DNA from: Candidatus Omnitrophota bacterium
GTDB taxonomy: Bacteria > Omnitrophota > Gorgyraeia > Duberdicusellales > 4484-171
Length of the DNA: 64,000 nt
Assembly (NCBI GenBank): GCA_020352775.1
Contig: CP070684.1
Location: forward strand, 47,302-111,301
Direction of reading: 5' to 3'
Shown here piece after piece: positions 9,789 to 46,981 of the stretch (within the stretch, counting starts at the first letter, position 1; the number at the start of each line of letters is the position of its first letter). A model generated the notes under the pieces. The model was given only the letters and a program-made list of their open reading frames with translations, searched no databases and was not told the origin of the DNA. A program made the position numbers and the translations under genes.

Positions 9789-10790
9789 ATGAGAAAAGGT
9801 TTTGCATTAATCGTCACAATCATTGTCATAACCCTGCTATCAGCCCTGGGGATATTCGGGGTATCGATGCTGTCAGCTGATATGCAAATCGCCACAGAAG
9901 CGATGCAGTCGGCAGAGGCCTTTTATATTGCCGAGGCAGGATTACAAAGAGTCATGGGTAAACTCAACAGCGATCCTGATTACCGCGATGCCCCTACAAC
10001 TTTAATGGATACTCTGGGAGAGGGAATGTTTTCAGTAATGGTAAGTAAAGACGCTTATACTTACACTCTTAACTCAACTGCTACCGTGGGTGATGTTACC
10101 CGTAAAATTCAGCAAAGCGCTATAGTTTTTCAGCAGGCGCCAGAAGCTTTCAATTATGGAATCTATTGTTACGGTGATATTTTTATGAACACCGTTGATA
10201 TGACCATAAACGGCAGCATTGCCACAGAAGGGGAAATATATCAATTTGCTACTAATCTGAACTTAAATGGTGACCTGGTAGAACACCTCAGTGCAAACAA
10301 CCTTGAGGTAGATATCCACAGCTATGAAGCTATTGCGGATTATGTTTATGATGGTACCCAAAACTTTTCTGATACAACCATCAATGGAATATACTATGTG
10401 AAAGGTGATGTAATAATACAGAATCAAGTCACTATAAACGGATCTATTATCTCAGAAGGAACTATTACCTTAAATATTACAAATTCAACCATTACCTCCA
10501 GTGGGGATTATCCAACATTTGCGTCGGAAGATGATATCGTATTTAACTCCGCTGAAGCCAGCACAATGAGTGGACTTATATACGCGAGCGACGATGTCAG
10601 GTTTAATAATGTCCAAAACACGGATTTTACAGGCTCAATAGTAGGTGCTGACGACGTGGAATTTAATTCCTGCTATAATTTTAATCTTAATTTCGATTCT
10701 GAGATATTGATTGATCCGCCGCCTTATTTTTCAGATTCAGAGTCAGGGGTCTGGAGAGCAGCTCCACAGCCAGATTGGGACGAACAATAA
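9789..10790 (+). CDS. PilX-N-domain pseudopilin-like protein with beta-helix-like C-terminal region, paralogue 2
   Basis: 333 aa; 'MRKGFALIVTIIVITLLSALGIFGVSMLSAD', 'EAFYIAEAGL', repeated 'TINGSI' strands, C-terminal 'PDWDEQ'. Confidence 0.7.
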   Translation: MRKGFALIVTIIVITLLSALGIFGVSMLSADMQIATEAMQSAEAFYIAEAGLQRVMGKLNSDPDYRDAPTTLMDTLGEGMFSVMVSKDAYTYTLNSTATVGDVTRKIQQSAIVFQQAPEAFNYGIYCYGDIFMNTVDMTINGSIATEGEIYQFATNLNLNGDLVEHLSANNLEVDIHSYEAIADYVYDGTQNFSDTTINGIYYVKGDVIIQNQVTINGSIISEGTITLNITNSTITSSGDYPTFASEDDIVFNSAEASTMSGLIYASDDVRFNNVQNTDFTGSIVGADDVEFNSCYNFNLNFDSEILIDPPPYFSDSESGVWRAAPQPDWDEQ

Positions 10791-15875: not shown

Positions 15876-15894
15876 AACTGTAGTGGAGAAAAAA

Positions 15895-16920
15895 ATGAAA
15901 AAAAGTTTTGCTCTTATCGTTACCCTTATCGTTATAACCCTTTTATCGGGACTGGGGTTATTCGGGGTCTCAATGCTTTCCACTGACACCCACATTGCGG
16001 TTGATGCCACCCAGGCCGACGAAGCTTTTTATATTGCGGAAGCGGGCCTAAAGCACGTAATGGCTAAAATCGTTACTGATGGAAGTTATCGCGATAACCC
16101 TACCCAAGTAATGGAGAACTTCGCATCGGGATTATTTATCGTAGATGTAACCAAGGTTGGCAATACCTACACCCTTACCTCAAACTCTACAATAGGGGGT
16201 ATAACCAGGGTGATTTCTCAGAGTGTGGTGTTTTCTGATGACCATAGTGGGCCCTTTGCCAATGCGATCTATGCCTATGGAAATCGACTCGATGTTAGAG
16301 ACACCGCCGGCGTAGTAAATGGCAATTTGAAATGCGAAGGAGAAGTTCAATATTGGGATCCCGCTCTTTTAACAGTAAACGGTACAGTAGAAGAATATGT
16401 CGAAAATCAGACACCGTTTACCGTAGACTATGTTGGTTTTCAATCGCGAGCTGACCATTTTGAAGGAGGAAACTATACTTTCAGCGCTGGGACTTATGGC
16501 TTAGAAGGAGGCGAGGAAATCTGGTATATCCAAGGCAAGGTGACAATAAAAGATGATGTTACTATATACGGCTCAATCATTGCTCCTAACATGACCGTGG
16601 ATATGGATATGGCTGATAATCTTACTATCGCACCTGCTACGGGTGAGCCTGCGATTATCACCGGAAACTATATTAACGCCGATGGTATGACAAATACGAC
16701 CATATCCGGTCTGATATACAGCGGAAAAGATATCCGAATGAGTAGCTTTGATGGCCTTACCATAAACGGAACAATGATCAGCGAAAATGTTATTGTCATG
16801 GAGCATGGTCGCGATTTTGAACTCAATTATGACCCCGATGCCCTGGGCGATTTGGAATATTTCGAGGGATATGAAGGTGGCGCCAGCGTCATCCCGCAGA
16901 ACGACTGGAACGAAACATAA
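15895..16920 (+). CDS. PilX-N-domain pseudopilin-like protein with beta-helix-like C-terminal region, paralogue 3 (the track ORF starts at a GTG at 15883)
   Basis: 'MKKSFALIVTLIVITLLSGLGLFGVSMLSTD', 'EAFYIAEAGL', 'TINGTMIS', C-terminal 'NDWNET'; last gene of the minor-pilin operon. Confidence 0.7.
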   Translation: MKKSFALIVTLIVITLLSGLGLFGVSMLSTDTHIAVDATQADEAFYIAEAGLKHVMAKIVTDGSYRDNPTQVMENFASGLFIVDVTKVGNTYTLTSNSTIGGITRVISQSVVFSDDHSGPFANAIYAYGNRLDVRDTAGVVNGNLKCEGEVQYWDPALLTVNGTVEEYVENQTPFTVDYVGFQSRADHFEGGNYTFSAGTYGLEGGEEIWYIQGKVTIKDDVTIYGSIIAPNMTVDMDMADNLTIAPATGEPAIITGNYINADGMTNTTISGLIYSGKDIRMSSFDGLTINGTMISENVIVMEHGRDFELNYDPDALGDLEYFEGYEGGASVIPQNDWNET

Positions 16921-23288: not shown

Positions 23289-23972
23289 ATGGATAGACAA
23301 CAAATAAAATCAATTGTAGAATCACTGCTTTTCATTAACGAAAAACCAATTGAGTTAAAAGAGCTGTGTGAGACTCTTTCGTTAAGCAAAAAAGATATTG
23401 AAGCCGCAACTAATGAATTAATCGCAGAATACAAGAGTCGCGCCTCAGGAATCTGCGTGGTTAAGGTTGCGGGAGGATATCAGATGTGCTCTGCTCCCGG
23501 CAATGAAGAGTGGGTTAAAAGAATGTATCGGGAGCGCGGCAAGCAGAAGCTTTCAGTTGCCGCCCTTGAATGCCTTGCGATTGTTGCCTACAAACAACCG
23601 ATCACCAAGATGGAGATAGAGGCAATCCGAGGCGTAAATGTGGACGGAGTGACAAAGAATCTGGTTGATTTTGGATTAATAAAGATTGCGGGCAGAAAAG
23701 AAGTGGTGGGTAGGCCTTTTATTTATATTACCACCCGCAAGTTTTTAGAGTATTTTGGTCTTAATTCCCTAAAAGACCTTCCGAGATTGGAAGAATTCAT
23801 TGAGCTTGCAAAAGAAGATAAGGTTCTTCAAGAGCTAACTGAGCCGCTTTTTAAAAAGCCGGAAACTGCCCAAGAAGAAATTGGCAAAAATAATGAAAGT
23901 AAAAATATTGAAAATCAAACCAACAATAGCGTAGCTAATCAAGATACGCACGAACAGAAGGAGGTAACATAA
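23289..23972 (+). CDS. scpB: Segregation and condensation protein B
   Basis: 227 aa; '[18 protein letters not shown]', '[26 protein letters not shown]', '[18 protein letters not shown]'. Confidence 0.85.
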
Positions 23973-25108
23973 TGAAAAGGTTTTTTGCTTCTGAATCAGT
24001 AACTGAAGGTCATCCTGATAAAGTATGCGATCAGATTTCAGATGCGGTCCTAGACGCAGTATTTTCTAAAGACCCGCGCGGACGCGTTGCCTGTGAGACA
24101 TTGGTAAGCCGCGGCCTGGTAGTAGTTGCGGGAGAAATAACAACTAATTGTTATGTGGAAATTCCAAGAGTTGTAAGAAATTTACTTAAAAATATCGGCT
24201 ATGACGACCCTGCAATCGGCTTTGACCATGAAAGCTGCGGGGTAGTGACTGCGATTCAGGAACAATCCGCAGATATTGCAGTAGGGGTAGATACCGGAGG
24301 TGCCGGTGACCAGGGACTTATGTTTGGATTTGCTAACACTGAAACCCCAGAGCTTATGCCCCTTCCGATCATGTTATCCCATCGACTGGTGCGCCGTCTT
24401 TCTGAATTAAGAAAGGAAAGGGTCTTACGCTATCTTCGTCCCGATGGAAAATCTCAAGTCTCCGTAGAATATGAGCATGGAAAGCCTAAACGGGTTGATG
24501 CTGTAATTCTTGGAGCCCATCACTCTAAAGAGATCCTCACCGAAGATTTACGTGAAGACCTTAAAAAGCTGGTTATTGATTATATTATCCCCAAAAATCT
24601 CATGGATAAAAATACCAAGATCTTTATCAACGGAACCGGTAGATTTGAAATCGGTGGTCCGGTATCTGATACCGGAGTTACCGGCAGAAAAATCATTGTC
24701 GATACATACGGCGGCTTTGCCCGTCACGGCGGAGGATGTTTTAGCGGTAAGGACCCCACAAAAGTTGACCGCTCTGCTTCTTACATGGGTCGCTATATCG
24801 CAAAGAATGTTGTAAGGGCCGGCTTAGCCCAGACATGCGAAGTTCAGCTTTCTTACTGTATTGGTGTTGCCGAACCAGTATCGGTTAGTGTCAATACTTT
24901 TGGAACCGGAAAGGCTGATGAAGGAAAGATTTCTAAGGCAATACGCGAAGTATTTAAACTTACTCCTTCCGGAATTATTGATGAACTTAAGCTCCTTCGG
25001 CCAATTTATACTAACACCGCTGCCTATGGACATTTTGGCCGGGAAGAAGAAGGGTTTACCTGGGAAAACACTGATAAAGCTGATGTATTGAAAAAGGCCT
25101 GCAAGTAA
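23972..25108 (+). CDS. metK: S-adenosylmethionine synthase
   Basis: 378 aa; '[18 protein letters not shown]', '[10 protein letters not shown]', '[16 protein letters not shown]'. Confidence 0.95.
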
Positions 25109-25118
25109 AGGAGAAAAC

Positions 25119-26381
25119 ATGAAGTGCGATATTAAAAATAAAAATTTACGCCAGGAAGGAAAAAAGAGAATCGAATGGGCACTAAACCGCATGCCGGTAT
25201 TAGAGCAAGTAAGGATGCGCTTTGCAAAAACAAAGCCACTTAAAGGAGTAACCATCGGTGCCTGTCTTCACGTCACCACTGAAACTGCTGCTTTAGCCCT
25301 TACCCTAAAAGCAGCGGGAGCGAGACCTTCAGTATGCGCCTCTAACCCTTTGTCCACCCAGGATGATGTGGCAGCATCATTGGTTTTTGACTACGGAATA
25401 GAGGTATTTGCGATCAAAGGTGAAAACACAAAAACTTATTATTCCCACATTGATTCAGTGCTAAAGAACAATCCCCAGATCACCCTTGATGATGGGGCGG
25501 ATCTGATTTCAGTAATTCACAAACGTGCCCGAACTTCTAAAACTCAAAGATTACCCTGGGCAAGTACTGAGGAGACAACCACTGGAGTGATACGCCTAAA
25601 ATCTTTAGAGGGGCAGGGAAAACTACTTTATCCCATTATTGCGGTAAATGACGCCTACACCAAGCACCTTTTTGATAACCGCTACGGGACCGGTCAATCT
25701 ACCATGGATGGAATAGTGCGCGCCACCAACAAACTCATTGCCGGCACCAATGTTGTAGTCTGTGGCTATGGGTGGTGTGGTAAAGGGGTATCAATAAGGG
25801 CAAAAGGCTTAGGTGCAAATGTAATTATCTGCGAGGCTGATCCCCTTAAAGCTCTGGAAGCAGTAATGGATGGATTTCGGGTCCTACCAGTTAAAGAAGC
25901 AGCCAAAATAGGAGATATATTTGTTACGGTCACCGGCGATATAAATGTAATCTCTAAAGAGGATTTTCCCTTAATGAAAGATAGAGTGCTAGTGGCCAAC
26001 GCTGGACACTTTGATGTTGAAATTGATATTAAAAGTCTTGCTGCGCTAGCCACAAAGAAAAAAGAAGTCAAACCCTTGGTGACCGAATACACTCTTAAAA
26101 ATAAAAAGAGAATTTATGTTTTAGGAGAAGGTAGGCTTGTAAACTTAGCCTGCGCTGAAGGTCATCCGGCAGAAGTAATGGATTTAAGCTTTGCCAATCA
26201 GGCATTAAGCGCTGAGTTTATCGCTAAGAACCACCGAAAGTTAAAGAAAAAAGTTTATAAGGTACCTGATGAGATAGACTCCAGAGTCGCGGCATTAAAG
26301 CTAAGTTCCATGGGTATAAGAATCGATAAGCTCACTACCCAACAAAAGAAATATCTGGCGAGCTGGGAAGTAGGAACCTAA
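25119..26381 (+). CDS. ahcY: Adenosylhomocysteinase
   Basis: 420 aa; 'CLHVTTETAAL', 'DDGADL', 'EETTTGV', NAD site 'VCGYGWCGKG', 'GHFDVEID'. Confidence 0.95.
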   Translation: MKCDIKNKNLRQEGKKRIEWALNRMPVLEQVRMRFAKTKPLKGVTIGACLHVTTETAALALTLKAAGARPSVCASNPLSTQDDVAASLVFDYGIEVFAIKGENTKTYYSHIDSVLKNNPQITLDDGADLISVIHKRARTSKTQRLPWASTEETTTGVIRLKSLEGQGKLLYPIIAVNDAYTKHLFDNRYGTGQSTMDGIVRATNKLIAGTNVVVCGYGWCGKGVSIRAKGLGANVIICEADPLKALEAVMDGFRVLPVKEAAKIGDIFVTVTGDINVISKEDFPLMKDRVLVANAGHFDVEIDIKSLAALATKKKEVKPLVTEYTLKNKKRIYVLGEGRLVNLACAEGHPAEVMDLSFANQALSAEFIAKNHRKLKKKVYKVPDEIDSRVAALKLSSMGIRIDKLTTQQKKYLASWEVGT

Positions 26382-37132: not shown

Positions 37133-37480
37133 ATGCAGACACAAAAATTTCCGATATCCATTACATTAAGGAAAAGGGATGAGATGATTTACTTCTCACA
37201 GCTTGATCTGATACATATATTAGAAAGGGCATTAAGAAGAACTGATTTACCGATTTATTTTACCCAAGGTTATAATCCTCATGTAAAGATAAGCTTTAGG
37301 AGCGGGCTAAAATTAGGAGTTACGGGCAAAATAGAAGTAGTGCTATATTTTAGCGAAAAAGTTGATAGAGAAAGGGCTATCCAAAAATTGAAAGAACATC
37401 TCCCGATGGGATTAAATATACTCAAAGGTTCGCAGATGAGCTTGAAAGAAATAAATAAATTACGCAGGCAGGCGAAATAA
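37133..37480 (+). CDS. Short DUF2344/TIGR03936-like radical-SAM-associated protein
   Basis: 115 aa from the ATG at 37133 (the track ORF from 37106 overlaps the upstream gene); 'YFSQLDLIHILERALRRTDLPIYFTQGYNPHVKISF' matches the N-terminal half of the family. Confidence 0.6.
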   Translation: MQTQKFPISITLRKRDEMIYFSQLDLIHILERALRRTDLPIYFTQGYNPHVKISFRSGLKLGVTGKIEVVLYFSEKVDRERAIQKLKEHLPMGLNILKGSQMSLKEINKLRRQAK

Positions 37481-37506: not shown

Positions 37507-38088
37507 TCAACGCACAATAAAGCGGTTCTTCGCACTTTTGGCTCCGAAAAATTCTTTGGTGAACTTCTTCGCTAACTCATGATCGTAAGCTTTACAGGAG
37601 AAGATATTAATGTAAGCCGTGCCCCAAAACTCAGAAAAATGGCCAGTGATGGAACTGGTCTCAATTAGCTGAACTAAAGAGTATCCTTTTGTAAATGCTT
37701 CTTTTTCTCCAAAATAAGGGATAAGGGCTTTGCCGTACTTCTTCATTTTGATGAGTTTGCAGAGAGTGTCGACGTACTCTTGAAGTTTTTTCTGAGAAGA
37801 TATCACCGTTGAGTCACAGTCCCGCAAATCCAAAATAAGTTCGTACCCAAATACCTTATTTTTCATTTCATTTGTCTCCTTTTTTAAACAGTTTTTATGG
37901 TTAGCGACAGAAAAAGCTTGCGTATTAGCGCGCCGCTTTTTAAATTGCACATTTTCGTTTGTATCCGGTGATATTTTTTTGACTTCTGGAGGGAGAGTAA
38001 GGCAAGGTGCACACAAGGGTTCAGCCGTAAGGTGAACCTTAGTGCAACGCTTTTTTTCGTCAGTCACGCAATACTTTTTCGTTACCAT
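37507..38088 (-). CDS. SpeD/AdoMetDC-fold pyruvoyl-enzyme homologue; core from M75 (37507-37866) preceded by an in-frame 74-codon Cys-containing extension
   Basis: 'FGYELILDLRDCD', 'ETSSITGHFSEFWGTAYINIFSCK' align with class-1 SpeD 'ESHxxIHTWPEYGYAAVDVFTCG'; AAGGAGA lies 9 nt before the ATG at 37866. Confidence 0.65.
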   Translation of the reverse strand: MVTKKYCVTDEKKRCTKVHLTAEPLCAPCLTLPPEVKKISPDTNENVQFKKRRANTQAFSVANHKNCLKKETNEMKNKVFGYELILDLRDCDSTVISSQKKLQEYVDTLCKLIKMKKYGKALIPYFGEKEAFTKGYSLVQLIETSSITGHFSEFWGTAYINIFSCKAYDHELAKKFTKEFFGAKSAKNRFIVR

Positions 38089-38278
38089 CTCCTTTTCGTA
38101 TTCTTTTATTTTTGTGTTGCATAAAAATTAATATTTAAATAAAATTTCTAACTCAATTATTTTTATAGCACAGTTTTGTATCTCTTGCAAGAGTTTTTTA
38201 AGTTTTTTCTCTCTAGAATATTTCTTAGCTTGCCAAAATTTTTTAAATCAGACTTTCTCCTTAATAAATAGACAAAAG

Positions 38279-39544
38279 TTACTTAGCTGCTCCTACGGTA
38301 GAAGGTGTATAGCCTTCAAAACTTGGAACATTTTTATCCATAATCTTAGTCGGTAGCCCGATTCTATCTAATATCGCGATGAATGGATCTGGGTCTAGCT
38401 CTTCAACATTTACCATGGTTTTTGTATCCCATTTCCCGTTAGCGACTAACATCGCAGCCGCTACCGGTGGCACACCGGCAGTATAACAGATGGCCTGGGA
38501 TTCTACTTCTTTGTAACATTGGGCATGGTCACAGGTATTATAGATAAATATTTCCTTATCTTTGCCGTTTTTTTTGCCTTTCACAAAGTTTCCAATGCAA
38601 GTTTTTCCTGTATAGTTAGGTGCTAATGAAAGTGGATCGGGTAGAATAGCTTTTATAACCTTAAGCGGCACTACTTCAACTCCTTCCGCAGTCTTAATGG
38701 GCTTTTCTGAGGTCAATCCCAGGTTAGTCAAAACACTAAAAACATTGATGTAGTGATCACTGAACCCCATCCAGAACCGGATACTGTTTGCGTCAATATT
38801 TTTTGACAAAGAATGAAGCTCATCATGACCGTTTAGATAAATGGGCTGCTTGCCTACCACTGGAAAATCATAAATTCTTTTGATGGAGTGGACCTTTTCC
38901 ATTACCCATTTTCTATCAATCCAGGTCCAAACTTTTTTGAATTCTCTGAAATTTATTTCCGGATCAAAGTTTGTAGCAAAATATTTACCGTGGTTGCCGG
39001 CGTTTACATCCATAATATCAATGGTATCAATTGTATCAAAATGGTGTTTAACCGCTAACGCGCAGTATGCGTTCACAACACCGGGGTCAAACCCTGCACC
39101 CAAGATGGCAGTAATACCTTTTTCTTTGCAGAGGTCCTTACGCTTCCATTCATAGTTTGCATACCAAGGAGGATCTTCGCAGACTTTATCCGGCTCTTCA
39201 TGTATAGCGGTATCCATGTAAGCTACGCCGGATTCAATGCAGGCTTGGAGAAGAGACATATTTACATATGATTGTGCAAGATTAACCACTATCTGAGAAT
39301 TAGTCTCTTTTATAATCTCTATTGCAGCTGGAATATCTAATGCATCTAACTGACGAGAGTATAGTTTTTTGGTCTTATCTTTTAGATGATTTTTTCTTTG
39401 AATGCTCTCAATAATTGCATCGCATTTACGCTGGGTTCGAGATGCAATACAAATATCACCTAAAAGGTCATTGTTCTGCGCGCATTTATGTGCCGCTACA
39501 TGAGCAACGCCACCAGCTCCTACGATTAAAACATTTTTTTTCAT
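38279..39544 (-). CDS. Carboxy(nor)spermidine dehydrogenase/synthase (CASDH/CANSDH, saccharopine dehydrogenase family)
   Basis: 421 aa; 'VLIVGAGGVAHVAAHKCAQNNDLLGDICIASRT', 'GAGFDPGVVNAY', 'DVNAGNHGKYFATNFDPE', collinear with the Vibrio enzyme as I recall it. Confidence 0.85.
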   Translation of the reverse strand: MKKNVLIVGAGGVAHVAAHKCAQNNDLLGDICIASRTQRKCDAIIESIQRKNHLKDKTKKLYSRQLDALDIPAAIEIIKETNSQIVVNLAQSYVNMSLLQACIESGVAYMDTAIHEEPDKVCEDPPWYANYEWKRKDLCKEKGITAILGAGFDPGVVNAYCALAVKHHFDTIDTIDIMDVNAGNHGKYFATNFDPEINFREFKKVWTWIDRKWVMEKVHSIKRIYDFPVVGKQPIYLNGHDELHSLSKNIDANSIRFWMGFSDHYINVFSVLTNLGLTSEKPIKTAEGVEVVPLKVIKAILPDPLSLAPNYTGKTCIGNFVKGKKNGKDKEIFIYNTCDHAQCYKEVESQAICYTAGVPPVAAAMLVANGKWDTKTMVNVEELDPDPFIAILDRIGLPTKIMDKNVPSFEGYTPSTVGAAK

Positions 39545-39555
39545 TGCACCCTCCT

Positions 39556-40659
39556 TTACGATAAATTGTTTTTAAAGTCTGTATAGCTGAAACGACGAAC
39601 AACATCTATCGATCCATCTTCTCTTTTAACTACGATCGAAGGCATGTTCAAACCGTTAAACCAATTTTTTTTCACCATGGTATAGCCTGCAGCATCGGCG
39701 ATTCTAATTATGCTACCTGGCTTTAGCTTAGATTTAAAATGAAATACTCCAAAGACATCCCCGGCAAGACAGGAACGTCCCGCAATCATATATTTAAACT
39801 TTCCATTTTTTGAATTATCTATTTTGGCCGCGCTTCGATATATTAGCAAATCTAACATATGCGCTTCTGTGGAAGCATCCACAATAGCGATATCAATCTC
39901 ATTGTGGATGATATCCAAGACTTTTGTCACGAGTTGGGCCGAACGTGTAATGGCGGCTTCTCCCGGTTCCAAATAAACTTGGATTTTAAATTTATTACTA
40001 AATTCCTTTAACTTTTTACAAAATTTTTCCACGGGGTACCCATCTTTTGTAAAATAAAATCCACCACCTAAACTGACCCATTTTAGTTTTTTAAGAAGAG
40101 TGCCATAGGTACGGCTGATAAAATCAAGATTAGAGGAGAAGTTTTTAAAGTCGTCATTCTCGCAATTAAAGTGAAACATTACCCCGCTGATCAAGGGTGC
40201 TATTTCTAAAAGAGATTTCTTGTTAACTACACCGAGTCTTGAGAATCGCCGTGCGGGATCAGCCAAATCATAATGAGAAAAACTTACCTTTGGATTAACT
40301 CTTATTCCTGCTTCCAGCCCCTTTATGCCTTTGCGATACATCTTTAATTGGGATATCGAATTAAAAATGATCTTATCTGCGTATCGGCGCACAGCTTTTA
40401 TATCATCTTTAGAGAAAGCCACGCAATAGGCATGGACTTCTTTGCCGAACTTTTCATAACCCAGGCGTGCCTCATATAAAGAGCTGCTGGTTGTTCCGTC
40501 CATGTATTTTTTCATGAGATTAAATACGCTCCAAGTGGAGAAACATTTAAGGGCAAGAACACTCTTAGCGCCACAACAATCCCTAATGCGCTTAATCAGC
40601 TTGAGATTCTTTAACAATTTACGCTCCTCAATCAAGTAATAAGGTGTTGTTAGGGTCAT
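39556..40659 (-). CDS. nspC: Carboxy(nor)spermidine decarboxylase
   Basis: 367 aa; 'TPYYLIEERKLLKNL', PLP-fold (alanine racemase-like) length, immediately upstream of CASDH in the same operon. Confidence 0.85.
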   Translation of the reverse strand: MTLTTPYYLIEERKLLKNLKLIKRIRDCCGAKSVLALKCFSTWSVFNLMKKYMDGTTSSSLYEARLGYEKFGKEVHAYCVAFSKDDIKAVRRYADKIIFNSISQLKMYRKGIKGLEAGIRVNPKVSFSHYDLADPARRFSRLGVVNKKSLLEIAPLISGVMFHFNCENDDFKNFSSNLDFISRTYGTLLKKLKWVSLGGGFYFTKDGYPVEKFCKKLKEFSNKFKIQVYLEPGEAAITRSAQLVTKVLDIIHNEIDIAIVDASTEAHMLDLLIYRSAAKIDNSKNGKFKYMIAGRSCLAGDVFGVFHFKSKLKPGSIIRIADAAGYTMVKKNWFNGLNMPSIVVKREDGSIDVVRRFSYTDFKNNLS

Positions 40660-40880: not shown

Positions 40881-40953
40881 GCCGACGTAGCTCAGTTGGT
40901 AGAGCAGGTCATTCGTAATGATCAGGTCGGAGGTTCGACTCCTCTCGTCGGCT
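40881..40953 (+). tRNA. tRNA-Thr(CGT); no encoded CCA
   Basis: Hand-folded: acceptor GCCGACG/CGTCGGC, D arm GCTC/GAGC, anticodon arm GGTCA-TTCGTAA-TGATC, T arm GGAGG-TTCGACT-CCTCT. Confidence 0.9.
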
Positions 40954-40992: not shown

Positions 40993-42258
40993 ATGCGCAA
41001 TTCTCACTTTCGAATCTTAAGAAAACGTAATTTCTTTTTCCTCTGGTTGGGCCAGATCATCTCTCAATTTGGGGATCGCCTCACCCAAATGGCCCTCATC
41101 GGACTTGTCTATCGACTGGAACCAGGTTCTTCAGTAGGTCTTGCAAAAATGCTCAGTTTAGCTATTATTCCGGTATTTCTTTTCTCGCCAGTTGCCGGAG
41201 TATATGCTGACAGGTGGAATAAGCAAAAAACTATGTATGTAAGCGATGCTTTGCGAGGCGTATTTATACTACTTATTCCGCTGGTATTCATGAAATTACA
41301 CTCTTATATACCTATATATGCCTTAGTGTTTCTTTCGTTTGGGGTAGGACGCTTCTTTATCCCCGCAAAAATGGCAATCATCCCATCCCTGGTTAAGAAA
41401 AAAGACTTTCTGGTTGCTAACTCTTTAGTTTCTATCACGGCAATGATCGCGGCGGTTTTAGGATTTGGCCTGGGCGGAATAATCGTTGAAAGGTGGGGGG
41501 TAGAAAGTGCTTTTATTCTCGATGCCTCGACCTTTTTTCTTTCCGCAATGCTAATCTTTGCAATGCGTATCAAAGAAAAAGCCAAGTTTAACCCCCGAGA
41601 ATTTTTTGTCGCTGGAAAAGACGCTATTCTTACGGCAAAAAACTCCTTTATGCACGAAGCTAAGGAAGGTTTGCGTTATATTCTCAAGTCCGCCGAGACC
41701 CGTTATGCTGCCAAAGTGCTTTTTGTTTTGTTTGCAACAATCGGCTCCCTTTATACAGTATTTATCGTGTTTATCCAGAATACCCTCGACACCATTACCC
41801 TAGATTTGGGATGGCTAGCAGTAGGAATAGGAGCAGGGCTTTTTCTGGGCTCACTTTTATACGGAAGATTCGGCTCTAAGGCCCGGGTAAAAAAGACAAT
41901 AAATCTATCCCTGCTTGCCTCAAGCTCATGCCTTGTTCTTTTTGCCTATCTTTTGCACACTTATCCCGATACCTTATTTGCATTTTTCTTATGCTTACTC
42001 CTAGGCGCAATCGCAGCTCCGATTGTAATTGCAGTCAATACCCTCATCCATCAGGAAAGCGAAAACAACTTCTGGGGACGAATCTTTAGCTCTTTAGAGG
42101 TTGTTATTCATCTGGCGTTTATTTTGTTTATGTTTGCTTCCTCATATCTGGCCGAAGTAATGACTCCCTTTACAATAATTATGAGCGTGGGGGTAATTGT
42201 AATGCTTTTTTCAACCTATACCCTTATAAGAAAAAATGCTGAAAGTTCACGAATCTAA
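40993..42258 (+). CDS. MFS transporter
   Basis: 421 aa, about 12 TMs, 'GVYADRWNKQKTM' loop 2-3-type motif. Confidence 0.8.
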   Translation: MRNSHFRILRKRNFFFLWLGQIISQFGDRLTQMALIGLVYRLEPGSSVGLAKMLSLAIIPVFLFSPVAGVYADRWNKQKTMYVSDALRGVFILLIPLVFMKLHSYIPIYALVFLSFGVGRFFIPAKMAIIPSLVKKKDFLVANSLVSITAMIAAVLGFGLGGIIVERWGVESAFILDASTFFLSAMLIFAMRIKEKAKFNPREFFVAGKDAILTAKNSFMHEAKEGLRYILKSAETRYAAKVLFVLFATIGSLYTVFIVFIQNTLDTITLDLGWLAVGIGAGLFLGSLLYGRFGSKARVKKTINLSLLASSSCLVLFAYLLHTYPDTLFAFFLCLLLGAIAAPIVIAVNTLIHQESENNFWGRIFSSLEVVIHLAFILFMFASSYLAEVMTPFTIIMSVGVIVMLFSTYTLIRKNAESSRI

Positions 42259-43522
42259 AGAACTGCAACACCAGCTGCCAAGCGAAAAATTACGTTTACC
42301 CAAAAAGCTCTACCTGCCGCTGTCTCAACATACCGGAAGACCTTCTAAAGCTTGTGTTTCAATAGGTAAGGAAGTAGAAGAAGCCAGCACAATCGCACTG
42401 GAAGACGGGTTGATCTCGGCCAGGCTTCATGCACCCCAAAAAGGAAAAATAACTGCTATTGAAAATTATTGGCATCCAGTATTAAAACGTGCACCCGCTA
42501 TCGCTTTAGAATGTGCCCCAGAAGAGAAACGCTATCAGATAGAAAAAGACCTCCAGCATTATTCTAAAGACGAAATACTAGAAATGATTAAAAATAGCGG
42601 AATTGTAGGAATGGGAGGGGCGGCATTTCCTAGCCAGGTGAAATTAAAACCGCCCCAAAAAGTCGACACCCTTATCATAAACGGTTGCGAATGCGAACCC
42701 TACCTGGCATGCGATTACCGACTGATGGTAGAAAATTTAGATGAGATATTTAAAGGGATCGAGATAGTTTGCAGGCTCATTAATCCTAAAGAAGTGATTT
42801 TTGCCATCGAAGACAACAAAATCTCAATCAAAAAGAAACTCAATCACATCCGCAGTCTAAAAAAATTCAATATCCCAAAGCTTGGGATCGCGGTATTAAA
42901 AACCGCTTACCCCCAAGGGGGCGAGAAACAGCTTATCTTCACGCTCACAAAAAGAAGAGTAAAAGGTGATGAGCTCCCCTTTGAAGTAGGCTGTCTCGTA
43001 CACAATGTCGCAACTTGTTTTGCCATTTATGAAGCGGTTTATCTGGATAAACCCCTAATTGAACGCATGGTAACATGTGCCGGAGATGCACTTTGCGCAC
43101 CTAAAAACATCTGGGTAAAAATTGGAACAACTCTTAAAGAACTATTTGATGAAAAAATCCTTGAGTTTAAAATTGAGCCTAAAAAAATTATTGCTGGCGG
43201 GCCGATGATGGGAATCGGATTAAATCACCTTGAATATCCGATATTAAAGGGGAGCGGAGGATTTCTCTTTCTGACAAAAGATGTCACCGAACTAGAAGAA
43301 GGTCCCTGCATAAGATGCGCCCGCTGCGTCGATGAATGCCCCATGCAGCTTACTCCGTTAGAATATGTTAAGCGTATAAAAAAAGAAGAGTATGCGGTAC
43401 TGGATAAATTTAACATCAATGACTGTATTGAGTGCGGCTCCTGCGCTTATGTCTGCCCGGCAAAAATACCGCTGGTGCATTATATAAAGATTGGTAAGAA
43501 TTATATGCCCAAAAAGAAATAA
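42236..43522 (+). CDS. rnfC: Rnf electron-transport complex subunit C
   Basis: 428 aa; 'GIVGMGGAAFPS', 'INGCECEPYLACD', two ferredoxin motifs 'CIRCARCVDECP' and 'CIECGSCAYVCP'. Confidence 0.85.
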   Translation: MLKVHESKELQHQLPSEKLRLPKKLYLPLSQHTGRPSKACVSIGKEVEEASTIALEDGLISARLHAPQKGKITAIENYWHPVLKRAPAIALECAPEEKRYQIEKDLQHYSKDEILEMIKNSGIVGMGGAAFPSQVKLKPPQKVDTLIINGCECEPYLACDYRLMVENLDEIFKGIEIVCRLINPKEVIFAIEDNKISIKKKLNHIRSLKKFNIPKLGIAVLKTAYPQGGEKQLIFTLTKRRVKGDELPFEVGCLVHNVATCFAIYEAVYLDKPLIERMVTCAGDALCAPKNIWVKIGTTLKELFDEKILEFKIEPKKIIAGGPMMGIGLNHLEYPILKGSGGFLFLTKDVTELEEGPCIRCARCVDECPMQLTPLEYVKRIKKEEYAVLDKFNINDCIECGSCAYVCPAKIPLVHYIKIGKNYMPKKK

Positions 43523-43524
43523 AT

Positions 43525-44451
43525 ATGAACCTGAAGGTCAGTTGTTCACCACATTTACGGTCACCAGTCAATACTCCCTGGGTAATGATGCAAGTAATTG
43601 TGGCTCTCCTACCAGCCACAATCGCAGCGATTATTCTCTTTAAACAACGGGCAGCGTTCTTGATTGCAAATTGCGTAATAACCGCCCTTGTTACTGAAGA
43701 AATAATCCAGAAAATACGAAAAAAACCATCAACTGTCGCAGACTATAGCGGAGTATTAACTGGTCTACTACTTGCTTTGATCCTGCCACCTTCCACGCGC
43801 TGGTATGCAGCGAGCTTAGGATCAATATTTGCAATCGCAGTAGGAAAGCATCTTTTCGGTGGGCTGGGGGCAAATATTTTTAATCCCGCGCTAATTGGAA
43901 GGGCATTTCTTATGGCTGCTTATCCTAAAATGCTCACTACGTTCATAGCGCCTTCCAGTGTAGATGCGATAACTAAAGCTACGCCTTTAGCGCTTAGGAA
44001 GTTTAGCGGGGTCATCACACCGACTAAAGATTTATTTTTAGGAACAATCGCGGGAAGCTTAGGAGAAACATCAGCTGTCTGCCTTATCATTGGCGGAGCT
44101 TATCTATTGTGGCGTAAAATCGCAGACTGGCGCATCCCTTTAACAGTTCTTACTACAACCACTGTGATCAGCGCCATTTTTCACATCGTAAATCCCCTTA
44201 ATGGCTCGATATTATTCCATTTATTTAGCGGTGGTCTTCTTTTGGGTGCGTTTTTTATGGCAACAGACCCGGTAACTACTCCCACCACTAAAACCGGCCG
44301 CTATATCTTTGGTGGTGGATGTGCAATACTAATTATGATCATAAGGTATTTTAGCGGGCTTCCCGAGGGCGTGATGTATTCAATTTTATTCATGAATGCA
44401 CTCACCCCCCTTATTAACAGTTACACACAACCGAAAAGGTTTGGAGAATGA
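43525..44451 (+). CDS. rnfD: Rnf complex subunit D
   Basis: 308 aa polytopic; 'NPALIGRAFL', 'ITKATPL', 'FMATDPVTTP' (FMN attachment region). Confidence 0.9.
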   Translation: MNLKVSCSPHLRSPVNTPWVMMQVIVALLPATIAAIILFKQRAAFLIANCVITALVTEEIIQKIRKKPSTVADYSGVLTGLLLALILPPSTRWYAASLGSIFAIAVGKHLFGGLGANIFNPALIGRAFLMAAYPKMLTTFIAPSSVDAITKATPLALRKFSGVITPTKDLFLGTIAGSLGETSAVCLIIGGAYLLWRKIADWRIPLTVLTTTTVISAIFHIVNPLNGSILFHLFSGGLLLGAFFMATDPVTTPTTKTGRYIFGGGCAILIMIIRYFSGLPEGVMYSILFMNALTPLINSYTQPKRFGE

Positions 44452-44987
44452 AGGAAGTTATAAAAATCACAACTAGCCTTACCTTAGTATGCCTGATATG
44501 CGCGCTAGCTCTTGCGCTAGTTTATGGAGTGGCTAAGGTAAAAATCGAATTAAATGAAAAGAAAATGATCCAGGATGCAATAATACGGTTAGCACCCGGG
44601 GCTCAAAGAATAGAAAGACTTAATGAGATATATAAACTTCTGGCAGATAACGGTAAGCTAGAAGGTTATGCATTCCTGGCCCAAGGCCAAGGCTATCAGG
44701 GAAAAATCAAAATCCTTTCGGTGATTGATTCTAATTTAAAAAAATTAGTCGGCATTGAAATCATCGAATCTGTAGAAACACCGGGGTTGGGGGCAAAAAT
44801 ACAGGAAGATGAGTTCAGGAATCAATTTAAAGAATTAAATACGCTGCCCGCGATAGAATGCGTAAAAGAAGAAGCAAAAAAGGATTATCAAATAAAAGCA
44901 ATCACCGGAGCAACCGTATCTTCAAGGGCAGTAGTAAGCATACTGAATAAAAGGATCGAGAAATTAAAAGAGGAATTGGGCAAATGA
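44448..44987 (+). CDS. rnfG: Rnf complex subunit G
   Basis: 179 aa; single TM, FMN-binding 'ETPGLGAKI', 'ITGATVSSRAV'. Confidence 0.85.
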   Translation: MKEVIKITTSLTLVCLICALALALVYGVAKVKIELNEKKMIQDAIIRLAPGAQRIERLNEIYKLLADNGKLEGYAFLAQGQGYQGKIKILSVIDSNLKKLVGIEIIESVETPGLGAKIQEDEFRNQFKELNTLPAIECVKEEAKKDYQIKAITGATVSSRAVVSILNKRIEKLKEELGK

Positions 44988-45571
44988 GAGAAATCGTAAA
45001 AGGCTTATGGGATGAGCACCCAATTTTTAGACAACTGTTAGGGATGTGTCCTACCCTGGCAGTAACAACTTCGGCAATCAATGGACTTTCGATGGGATTG
45101 GCAGTGGTGTTTGTGCTTTTTTTCTCATCGTTAGTGGTCTCTGTTATGAAAAAAATTGTACCGCACCAGGTACGAATTGCAATCTATACTGTGATTATTG
45201 CCACCTTTGTAACGATTGTTGATATATTCCTTAAAGCCAATTTCCCCCAGATCAGCCGTGCCCTTGGTCCTTATGTTCCATTAATCATTGTTAACTGTAT
45301 AATTCTGGGAAGATGTGAAGCATTTGCTTCCAAACACAGTATCGGCAAGTCTTTACGTGATGCATTAGGAATGGGTATTGGGTTTAGCTGGGGATTGTTT
45401 CTTCTGGGGGCGATACGTGAAATCTTCGGGGCAAGGACGCTATTGGGAATTCAAATTCTACCCCAAAACTATGATCGATTGATCGTGATGATTTTACCGG
45501 CAGGAGCGTTTTTAGTATTGGGGTTTCTGGTTGCAATCATGAATCAAATAGAGGCAAAGGCTAAGAAATGA
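44984..45571 (+). CDS. rnfE: Rnf complex subunit E
   Basis: 195 aa; 'NPIFRQLLGMCPTLAVTT', 'LIIVNCIILGR'. Confidence 0.9.
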   Translation: MREIVKGLWDEHPIFRQLLGMCPTLAVTTSAINGLSMGLAVVFVLFFSSLVVSVMKKIVPHQVRIAIYTVIIATFVTIVDIFLKANFPQISRALGPYVPLIIVNCIILGRCEAFASKHSIGKSLRDALGMGIGFSWGLFLLGAIREIFGARTLLGIQILPQNYDRLIVMILPAGAFLVLGFLVAIMNQIEAKAKK

Positions 45572-46149
45572 AGGAATTATTATTAATATTTATTTCCACG
45601 GTATTGATTAATAATCTGGTATTGTCCTACTTTCTGGGAATTTGTCCCTTCTTGGGGGTCTCGGGCAGAATCGAGTCTGCGTTTGGAATGGGAATGGCAG
45701 TTATCTTTGTGATGACTTTAGCAACCAGTATCAGCTGGTTAATTTATCATTTAATTCTTTTACCATTTGGTTTATTTTTCTTAGAATATGTAGTTTTTAT
45801 TCTGGTCATTGCATCGTTAGTACAGATTGTGGAGATGTTTATACGAAAGTTTTCACCTGCGCTTTATCAGTCTCTGGGAATATATCTTCCCCTTATTACC
45901 ACTAATTGCGCCATTTTAGGAGTGGCGCTTTTTATGGTCGCCAGGAATTATAAGTTTCTGGAATCAGTGGTATTTGGGTTTGCCGCAGGATTGGGATTCT
46001 GGCTGGTATTACTTATCATGGCCGGAATTAGAGAAGAGCTAGAATATGTAGAGGTACCAAAAGTATTTAAAGGCGCTTCCTTAACGTTAATCACCGCCGG
46101 GCTCTTAGCACTTATCTTTATGGGTTTTTCAGGATTAATAAGTGCATAA
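45568..46149 (+). CDS. rnfA: Rnf complex subunit A
   Basis: 193 aa; 'INNLVLSYFLGICPFLGVS', 'LPLITTNCAILGVAL'. Confidence 0.9.
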   Translation: MKELLLIFISTVLINNLVLSYFLGICPFLGVSGRIESAFGMGMAVIFVMTLATSISWLIYHLILLPFGLFFLEYVVFILVIASLVQIVEMFIRKFSPALYQSLGIYLPLITTNCAILGVALFMVARNYKFLESVVFGFAAGLGFWLVLLIMAGIREELEYVEVPKVFKGASLTLITAGLLALIFMGFSGLISA

Positions 46150-46981
46150 TATGAATCAAATTACAATTTCAGTCTTGGTTCTGGGAACAACGGGTTTAAG
46201 TTTTTCTCTACTCTTAGCTCTTTTGAGCAAAAAGCTGCATGTAGAGGATGACCCCCGCCTAAAAGAAGTGTTGGATGTTTTGCCGGGATTAAACTGCGGT
46301 GCCTGCGGATACAGTGGCTGCCGCGCCTATGCCGAGGCGGTTGTAAAAAGCCTTAATCTTTTCAATGGGTGTCTGCCAGGAGGAGAAGAGGTAAATAATA
46401 AAATCGCTCATATCCTAAGAATAGATGCTGTAGACAAAAAACATACCGTAACTGCAATTTGTCGTTGCGCGGCCCAAGAAGGACAAAAGAAAGAATCTAC
46501 TTCCTATGAAGGCCCACAAACCTGTAAGGCTGCTCACCTAATTGGTGGAGCGCTTGACTGTATTTATGGCTGTATGGCATTGGGGGATTGCATCGAGGTG
46601 TGTCCAGTAGGAGCGCTTAGCCTTAATAATAAAAAGATCTATGTGGATCATACTAAGTGTATCGCGTGTGGGAAATGCGTGAAGGCCTGTCCGCGCAAAC
46701 TCTTTATTATCATCCCCTTAAAAGAAAATATCGATATCTACAATGTAGCCTGCAGCAATAAAGATAAGGGTGCCCAGACACAAAAGGTATGCGCACGCGG
46801 CTGCATCGGTTGCGGTCTGTGCACAAAGGTAGAAAGCTCACCGTATTATCTTAAAGATAATCTTTCCTACATTGATTATAAAAACGCAACCCAAACCAAA
46901 CCCCTAGAAGAGGGTAAAGAAAAATGTCCTACAAAATGTATTGATAAAGAAGAATTTAAGATATCCGTCAAGGCCCCATGA
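46142..46981 (+). CDS. rnfB: Rnf complex subunit B (alternative ATG at 46151)
   Basis: 279 aa; TM, 'LPGLNCGACGYSGCRAYAEA', several CxxCxxCxxxCP ferredoxin motifs. Confidence 0.85.
   Translation: MHNMNQITISVLVLGTTGLSFSLLLALLSKKLHVEDDPRLKEVLDVLPGLNCGACGYSGCRAYAEAVVKSLNLFNGCLPGGEEVNNKIAHILRIDAVDKKHTVTAICRCAAQEGQKKESTSYEGPQTCKAAHLIGGALDCIYGCMALGDCIEVCPVGALSLNNKKIYVDHTKCIACGKCVKACPRKLFIIIPLKENIDIYNVACSNKDKGAQTQKVCARGCIGCGLCTKVESSPYYLKDNLSYIDYKNATQTKPLEEGKEKCPTKCIDKEEFKISVKAP

Follow-up and report, generated by a model that had tools for sequence, protein, structure and literature searches.

Many bacterial and archaeal homologues of SpeD, the S-adenosylmethionine (SAM) decarboxylase (AdoMetDC), are pyruvoyl-dependent decarboxylases of arginine (SpeDA) or of ornithine (SpeDC), as described by Li et al. 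(2023, J Biol Chem 299:105005; PMC10407285). The SpeDC proteins form a single clade that is recognised by Gln, Thr, Phe and Tyr at four positions of the central region, and true AdoMetDCs carry an invariant Pro. SpeDA proteins are little diverged from AdoMetDC, and arginine decarboxylases arose several times from SpeD homologues. The gene clusters of speDC include speD and speE, casdh and casdc (carboxyspermidine dehydrogenase and decarboxylase), or hss; an Omnitrophota example was assayed in the same study (PMC10407285). Here we describe a probable speDC gene on a stretch of 64,000 nucleotides from a Candidatus Omnitrophota bacterium (assembly GCA_020352775.1, contig CP070684.1, positions 47,302 to 111,301 of the forward strand), referred to as the window, whose own numbering is used throughout. 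The gene is clustered with nspC, encoding a carboxy(nor)spermidine decarboxylase (CANSDC or CASDC), and with a gene for a carboxy(nor)spermidine dehydrogenase (CASDH). We assign a probability of roughly 85% to the reading that its product is SpeDC, a class 1b AdoMetDC homologue that has switched to L-ornithine and supplies putrescine for the synthesis of spermidine via CASDH and CANSDC. A SpeDC within a CASDH/CANSDC cluster is not a new idea, as it is already contained in Li et al. (2023), and this kind of enzyme has been published, including a characterised orthologue with phylum and gene order in common. The only part of the locus that looks new is the leader upstream of speDC, which merits experimental study.

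The characterised orthologue was returned by a scan of one genome per GTDB species with a 12-sequence alignment. It belongs to Candidatus Velamenicoccus archaeovorus LiM (L069), whose 126-residue product is exactly WP_128700171.1. This protein is active on ornithine with a kcat/Km of 113 per M per s, its activity on arginine and lysine is undetectable, and it failed to restore spermidine in E. coli lacking speD (PMC10407285). Over all 119 residues the window protein shares 57% identity, without gaps, with the V. archaeovorus SpeDC, and the core is near-identical (QFIETSSITGHFSELW..AYINIFSC in V. archaeovorus, QLIETSSITGHFSEFW..AYINIFSC in the window protein). The two organisms share the phylum Omnitrophota and the gene order nspC-CASDH-speDC. 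The leaders differ: the window has an upstream open reading frame (uORF1), an in-frame leader open reading frame (ORF) and a hairpin, whereas the V. archaeovorus spacer has other short uORFs.

Further described systems resemble the locus in part. In Candidatus Electrothrix aarhusiensis (RWX43081), speDC is clustered with casdc and casdh as in the window, albeit in the reversed order speDC-casdc-casdh (PMC10407285). The SpeD-SpeDC fusion proteins of Omnitrophica OLB16 and Desulfotignum phosphitoxidans have an ornithine decarboxylase (ODC) domain with the same IETS pyruvoyl site as the window protein; unlike the latter, they carry a second, true AdoMetDC domain. In these fusions (PMC10407285, Fig. 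S5) the ODC domains read QLIETS..GHF..Y..FSC, with IETS marked as the pyruvoyl site, and the AdoMetDC domains read V..ES H..H(S/T)WPE. The substitution S229A abolishes the ODC activity of the D. phosphitoxidans ODC domain, which proves the pyruvoyl site there (PMC10407285). When the window protein was compared with the OLB16 fusion by BLASTP, the ODC domain alone matched (E 2e-23), and the identity to this domain is 34%, with the OLB16 sequence read by optical character recognition from the supplement.

The SpeD homologue of the window has the class 1b AdoMetDC fold, on the combined evidence of Pfam, profile comparison and an AlphaFold model. The Pfam family AdoMet_dc (PF02675) matches it with 55 bits (E 1e-14), and a profile of 69 diverse homologues matches the AdoMetDCs of Thermotoga maritima and Aquifex aeolicus (1TLU/1VR7/2III) over the full length with E ~1e-7. 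The family profile is needed for this comparison: a phmmer search of the PDB sequences with the single sequence gave spurious WD40 repeats only. The AlphaFold model of the 119-residue protein (predicted local distance difference test, pLDDT, 96.5) superposes best on 1VR7/1TLU, the T. maritima AdoMetDC, with a template modelling (TM) score of 0.84-0.86, a root-mean-square deviation of 1.9 A and 21% identity. In the profile alignment Ser71, His76 and Cys91 fall on T. maritima Ser63, His68 and Cys83, residues named as essential for processing and catalysis (PMC10407285), and across the family this Ser, the His at +5 and the Cys at +20 are near-invariant. The window protein thus has the fold (TM ~0.85), the length and the Ser/His/Cys processing and catalytic residues in common with T. 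maritima AdoMetDC (1TLU, 1TMI, 1VR7), and differs from it in sequence (~21% identity), in a Thr-Ser junction, in Glu for Pro71, in the Gln/Phe/Tyr substitutions and, presumably, in its substrate.

The altered residues lie around the predicted site of self-cleavage. The junction is Thr70|Ser71, not Glu|Ser, the residue following Ser71 is Ser, not His, and Glu79 occupies the position of T. maritima Pro71, the Pro found three residues past the catalytic His in AdoMetDC. Self-processing of the window protein at Thr70|Ser71 is predicted from this alignment. An initial annotation, made from the sequence, had drawn attention to the string ETSSITGHFSE as an altered processing motif. The string is present as residues 69-79 of the 119-residue form; the alignment given for it was one residue out of register, as the T. 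maritima profile alignment places Ser71 on Ser63. The motif is indeed altered in that the Glu-Ser junction is now Thr-Ser and the His beside the Ser is replaced, whereas the catalytic His76 is kept. The further suggestion, that the protein is a pyruvoyl decarboxylase of arginine or ornithine which arose from SpeD and provides the diamine, is supported, specifically for the ornithine type, by the diagnostic residues, the TIGR03330 score, the 57%-identical orthologue, the gene order and the phylogeny.

All four residues diagnostic of SpeDC are present (Gln66, Thr70, Phe77 and Tyr85), and the Pro of AdoMetDC is absent. The four are invariant among the 120 closest homologues. A wider census of 157 domains from 150 cluster representatives gives Q 147, T 139, S 153, H 154, F 126, Y 107 and C 151 for the diagnostic and catalytic positions. 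In a neighbour-joining tree of ODC-type sequences and bona fide SpeDs, the window protein falls into the ODC clade together with the V. archaeovorus, A. thermophila and OLB16 ODC sequences (bootstrap 100). The same tree places T. maritima SpeD, the AdoMetDC domains of the fusion proteins and the speE-linked SpeDs apart from it, so that the protein groups with ODC-type homologues and not with bona fide AdoMetDCs.

These data bear on two alternative substrates. A genuine AdoMetDC, paired with an aminopropyltransferase encoded elsewhere and adjacent to CASDH and CANSDC by coincidence, would agree with the public annotation as S-adenosylmethionine decarboxylase and with the retained AdoMetDC fold and catalytic triad. 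We regard this as highly improbable: the window protein reaches 21 bits with TIGR03330, the equivalog model of bona fide AdoMetDCs, for a cut-off of 75.65, it has neither the invariant Pro nor the Glu-Ser junction, and BLASTP with the window protein gave no match to any bona fide SpeD. Moreover, the orthologue does not complement E. coli lacking speD (PMC10407285), and the relatives with speE beside speDC (56 loci) also carry a separate canonical speD.

A pyruvoyl arginine decarboxylase of the SpeDA kind is unlikely too. Its product agmatine would be converted into putrescine by an agmatinase encoded elsewhere, or be used directly by the CASDH and CANSDC homologues in a carboxyaminopropylagmatine route to spermidine; Synechocystis has a CASDH-like route that starts from agmatine (PMC10599626), and the genome outside the 64-kb window may hold further genes. 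The shift from SpeD to arginine decarboxylase has happened on several occasions, and the SpeDC clade reportedly includes an arginine decarboxylase from a phage (PMC10407285). These points are opposed by the presence of all four ODC-diagnostic residues, by the inactivity on arginine of the 57%-identical orthologue with the same gene order (PMC10407285), and by the 40 scanned ORFs of the window, which include neither an arginase-fold ureohydrolase nor an agmatine deiminase. In addition, SpeDA proteins are little diverged from AdoMetDC, whereas the window protein finds no SpeD by BLAST. A search of a phage collection returned weak matches only (24-32% identity) and throws no light on the phage exception of the arginine type.

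The genomic setting agrees with SpeDC as a supplier of putrescine. The genes for nspC, CASDH and the small SpeD homologue are three co-directional ORFs on the minus strand, of 367, 421 and 193 residues respectively (the last at 37507-38088; Table 1), and ORFs and domain models agree with the initial annotation on their identity and position. The nspC product passes the equivalog model TIGR01047 (432 bits, cut-off 409) and is 66% identical to the CANSDC homologue of the V. archaeovorus cluster. CASDH is 83% identical to its homologue in that cluster; its full-length match (residues 5-403) to the carboxynorspermidine synthase equivalog NF043000 stays below the cut-off (480 bits vs 800). It is a member of the family by architecture and context, and its amine substrate is putative.

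The SpeD homologue can be read as a protein of 119 residues (37507-37866) or of 193 residues (up to 38088). The ATG of the shorter form, at 37866, is preceded by AAGGAG 9 nucleotides upstream, and an equally strong Shine-Dalgarno sequence and ATG are found in related loci. Most of the 1482 homologues found have 119 residues, and GenBank UCG35330.1, from a Candidatus Omnitrophota metagenome-assembled genome, is exactly the 119-residue protein. The conserved enzyme is the 119-residue form, and the 74 codons ahead of it make up a leader ORF that continues into it in frame. nspC and CASDH are separated by 11 nucleotides and CASDH and the 119-residue speDC start by 412 nucleotides. The earlier term 'operon' hence holds in the sense of a co-directional gene cluster; a tight operon it is not, given a 412-nucleotide spacer with a conserved promoter-like motif before speDC. 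The absence of a speA- or speC-type decarboxylase from the window, also noted before, is confirmed by Pfam: among 40 ORFs of the 64-kb window, which include all those of at least 250 residues without earlier identification, there is no other Orn/Arg decarboxylase, no spermidine synthase (Spermine_synth), no agmatinase or arginase and no agmatine deiminase.

In the proposed pathway the proenzyme would cleave itself between Thr70 and Ser71, Ser71 would become the pyruvoyl cofactor, assisted by His76 and Cys91, and ornithine would be decarboxylated to putrescine. CASDH would condense putrescine with aspartate semialdehyde to carboxyspermidine, which CANSDC would decarboxylate to spermidine, the whole route proceeding without decarboxylated SAM (dcSAM). 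The substrate could be another diamino acid, for example L-2,4-diaminobutyrate, which would yield 1,3-diaminopropane and make norspermidine, not spermidine, the product of the cluster. In favour of this, the enzymes of the later steps are members of the carboxy(nor)spermidine family, with the nspC model matched, and the homologues were assayed on ornithine, arginine and lysine only, the ornithine activity of the orthologue being low (PMC10407285). We nevertheless give this variant little credence: every tested member of the clade used ornithine (PMC10407285), speDC is equally often paired with speD/speE, which needs putrescine, and no diaminobutyrate aminotransferase is present among the 40 scanned ORFs of the window.

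The pairing was determined for 153 non-redundant speDC loci, pooled from genome and metagenome scans and look-ups. CASDH is located directly upstream of speDC in 46 loci, and CASDH/CANSDC genes occur in another order in 8. speE is adjacent in 56, usually as speD-speE-speDC; 26 loci have neither spermidine module, and in the remaining 17 the upstream contig is too short to tell. The balance of CASDH/CANSDC-linked (54 of 153) and speD-speE-linked loci (56 of 153) fits a supplier of putrescine for either spermidine route. The exchange can be followed at a single chromosomal site. In a related Omnitrophota chromosome (L001, 6776-8360), speD-speE-speDC is found at the site syntenic to the window cluster (37507-40659), with DUF2344, radical SAM, rodA, PBP2, mreDCB and ilvD as shared neighbours, and in a second relative (L002) speDC stands alone at this site. 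That the ODC gene is fixed while the spermidine module swaps fits the putrescine step, putrescine being the substrate common to both routes. The fixed ODC gene with an exchanged downstream module, either speD/speE or CASDH/CANSDC, is a clean example of modular pathway replacement.

SpeDC-type domains also occur in fusions. A Candidatus Diapherotrites archaeon has one ORF (L077, 4614-5864) that apparently joins an N-terminal SpeDC-type domain (QLIETSNISGHF) and a spermidine-synthase-like domain at the C-terminus; a separate SpeD-like gene lies downstream. Two cluster representatives (P0180 and P0227, 412-414 residues) appear to be similar fusions, and in other representatives, of 418-461 residues, the SpeDC domain is located C-terminal to an unidentified partner.

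We note that several points weigh against the assignment as SpeDC. The orthologue WP_128700171 is slow (kcat/Km 113 per M per s), and the substrates assayed did not include 2,4-diaminobutyrate (PMC10407285). The positions of the diagnostic residues were derived from the text of the same paper and the ODC domains shown in its Fig. S5, and the tree contains no arginine-type sequences. Because the phage arginine decarboxylase falls inside the SpeDC clade (PMC10407285), membership in this clade is not absolute proof of the substrate. The survey covers 64 kb of a genome of ~1.28 Mb, and the negative results for speE, speA, speC, agmatinase and ornithine supply are confined to the window. Self-processing, substrate and pathway product in this organism are inferred.

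If the assignment is correct, its practical value lies in the correction of database labels. UCG35330.1 and every source-named homologue listed (P0001-P0120) are labelled S-adenosylmethionine decarboxylase or S-adenosylmethionine/arginine decarboxylase-like. These labels are probably a systematic mis-annotation of ornithine decarboxylases that spans hundreds of homologues. A metabolic reconstruction of Omnitrophota that relies on the SAM decarboxylase label would therefore wrongly infer a dcSAM route and miss the source of putrescine.

The second subject of this analysis is the leader of speDC. Loci with the order nspC-CASDH-speDC always have a spacer of 130-730 nucleotides before the 119-residue start, and speE-speDC junctions are tight. 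Within the spacer of the window lies a promoter-like motif, TTGCAA-N17-TATAAA with a TG upstream of the -10 element. The strict pattern is found in 12 of 20 CASDH-speDC spacers, and the block can be aligned across almost all 21 leader-bearing loci. Its function as a promoter is suggested by pattern and conservation. A generic scan for promoters and terminators gave a site count at chance level and did not flag the conserved motif, because the scan requires T at the last -10 position and the motif ends in A.

Downstream of the promoter-like motif follows a conserved block that was modelled as an nhmmer profile. The profile finds 26 instances, 21 of them distinct, all on the same strand as and directly upstream of speDC. 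In terms of non-redundant loci the block is present in 20 of the 46 CASDH-speDC loci and on 3 short contigs, and in none of 90 other loci. The window has a single match (38127-38040, E 1e-18). The leader-bearing relatives are L004, L006, L007, L014, L024, L025, L034, L035, L090, L094, L102 and L107, and further L113, L124, L127, L142, L144, L147, L151 and L156. No Rfam family reaches its gathering score in the leader; the matches with E up to 5 are at chance level only, among them ODC_IRES (E 1.3) on the wrong strand.

The block contains two overlapping reading frames. The first, uORF1, consists of 20 codons in 15 of 18 readable leaders, of 22 codons in two and of 18 codons in one, so that all changes of length are in frame. 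Its stop codon is kept, including a change from TGA to TAA in L035, and the usual end is GAC-TGA-C. There is no obvious Shine-Dalgarno sequence for uORF1, and codon-position entropy across uORF1 and the overlap region gave no clear period-3 signal; coding selection on uORF1 is therefore unproven. The second frame, ORF2, begins 34 nucleotides past the ATG of uORF1 in the +1 frame (ATG at 38088 in the window). Its Shine-Dalgarno sequence and ATG lie inside uORF1, and the overlap spans the first ten codons of ORF2. The ORF2 frame is open for 54-79 codons in every leader-bearing locus, compared with 1-11 stops in the other two frames; in shuffled sequences the frame stays open with a probability of 0.003-0.06 per locus. 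Either ORF2 continues in frame into speDC, as in the window, or its stop lies between -15 and +31 nucleotides from the speDC ATG. In 11 of the 14 non-fused loci the stop falls between -1 and +8, frequently with stop and start overlapping as ATGA. In the close relative L004 a start codon is missing from the position of the 119-residue start, and the fused form must hence be made there.

Inside ORF2 lies a conserved hairpin. All seven pairs of its inner helix are changed on both sides, with 84% of cells paired, and RNAalifold independently recovers this helix. The whole hairpin is 74.5% paired vs at most 47% when the 3' partner is slid, and none of 500 shuffles reaches the observed covariation score. 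A pyrimidine-rich tract follows the hairpin. Where ORF2 is not fused, the hairpin leads directly into 4-7 U in the manner of an intrinsic terminator, and the fused clade has a degenerate U run. The idea that the 74 upstream codons encode a conserved protein domain was dropped: the apparent peptide motifs (V-H...E-P and C-A...F-C) are the arms of the hairpin with compensatory substitutions. The Shine-Dalgarno sequence of speDC is often predicted to pair with the pyrimidine-rich leader in non-fused loci (0.6-0.95); the partners vary, and this pairing is a hint only.

From its sequence features, the leader may be a ribosome-dependent attenuator or a coupling device. More specifically, and as a tentative proposal that we consider rather doubtful at present, an undescribed ribosome-dependent leader might control speDC in one clade of Omnitrophota. 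Transcription would start at the promoter-like motif, uORF1 would end in Asp-UGA-C, ORF2 would be translated through the terminator-like hairpin, and the behaviour of ribosomes on the uORF would set the level of ODC, with ornithine or a polyamine as the signal. A response to a ligand is pure conjecture, by analogy with speFL and with the uORFs of AdoMetDC. E. coli speFL, upstream of speF, is likewise a short conserved uORF before an ornithine decarboxylase gene (bioRxiv 10.1101/604074), and plant AdoMetDC mRNA leaders likewise have two overlapping uORFs (PMC2811004). The window leader has no sequence similarity to either, occurs in another phylum and precedes a gene for a pyruvoyl enzyme; unlike in speFL and the plant uORFs, its ORF2 is a long frame that includes a covarying hairpin and is joined to the enzyme gene by fusion or translational coupling. 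A regulatory role, if confirmed, would make the leader the first described cis-acting control element of a pyruvoyl ODC and a bacterial counterpart to the uORF controls of polyamine genes in E. coli and eukaryotes.

Table 1. Positions of genes, leader elements and predicted active-site residues of the nspC-CASDH-speDC cluster in the window.
Feature	Coordinates	Strand	Basis
nspC, carboxy(nor)spermidine decarboxylase (CANSDC/CASDC), 367 residues, pyridoxal phosphate (PLP)-dependent	39556..40659	-	TIGR01047, Orn/DAP/Arg decarboxylase domains
Carboxy(nor)spermidine dehydrogenase (CASDH) family member, 421 residues	38279..39544	-	Sacchrp_dh_NADP and Sacchrp_dh_C domains
Promoter-like TTGCAA-N17-TATAAA, TG upstream of -10, in the CASDH-speDC spacer	38162..38190	-	Pattern search and alignment
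uORF1, 20 codons and stop (MQHKNKRIRKGDGNEKVLRD*)	38060..38122	-	Leader comparison
Leader ORF2, 74 codons, fused in frame to speDC (193-residue ORF)	37867..38088	-	Open-frame comparison
Conserved leader hairpin inside ORF2	38009..38045	-	Covariation and RNAalifold
Shine-Dalgarno AAGGAG and ATG of the 119-residue SpeDC	37864..37881	-	Direct sequence reading
speDC, probable AdoMetDC-fold pyruvoyl L-ornithine decarboxylase proenzyme, 119 residues (UCG35330.1)	37507..37866	-	Pfam, AlphaFold model, orthology, tree
Thr70-Ser71, predicted self-cleavage site; Ser71 predicted pyruvoyl precursor	37654..37659	-	Alignment with T. maritima Ser63
His76 (37639-37641), Phe77, Glu79, Tyr85, Cys91 (37594-37596)	37594..37641	-	Alignment with T. 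maritima His68, Pro71, Cys83

The surroundings of the cluster comprise genes of various functions. A DUF2344 gene on the plus strand (ending at 37480) converges with speDC on the minus strand (ending at 37507), with 26 nucleotides between the stops; the generic terminator scan found no terminator-like hairpin between them. At a distance of 11 kb from the cluster, metK (SAM synthetase) and ahcY (S-adenosylhomocysteine hydrolase) are adjacent on the plus strand (23972-26381). This pair is ordinary methyl-cycle housekeeping, without evident tie to the dcSAM-independent polyamine route. PilX N-terminal domains are found in two ORFs of 333-345 residues on the plus strand (9789-10790 and 15883-16920), located amid many small ORFs; several neighbours have no Pfam match, and the two ORFs suggest a set of genes for pseudopilins or a type IV pilus-like structure. 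Immediately upstream of nspC, the opposite strand carries a tRNA (40881-40953) and a gene for an MFS transporter (40993-42258). A run of Rnf-type electron-transport genes occupies 42236-46981 on the plus strand, in which RnfC-like and RnfD-like subunits were recognised by eye from the translations, and the run includes a subunit with an Fe-S/ferredoxin domain at 46142-46981.

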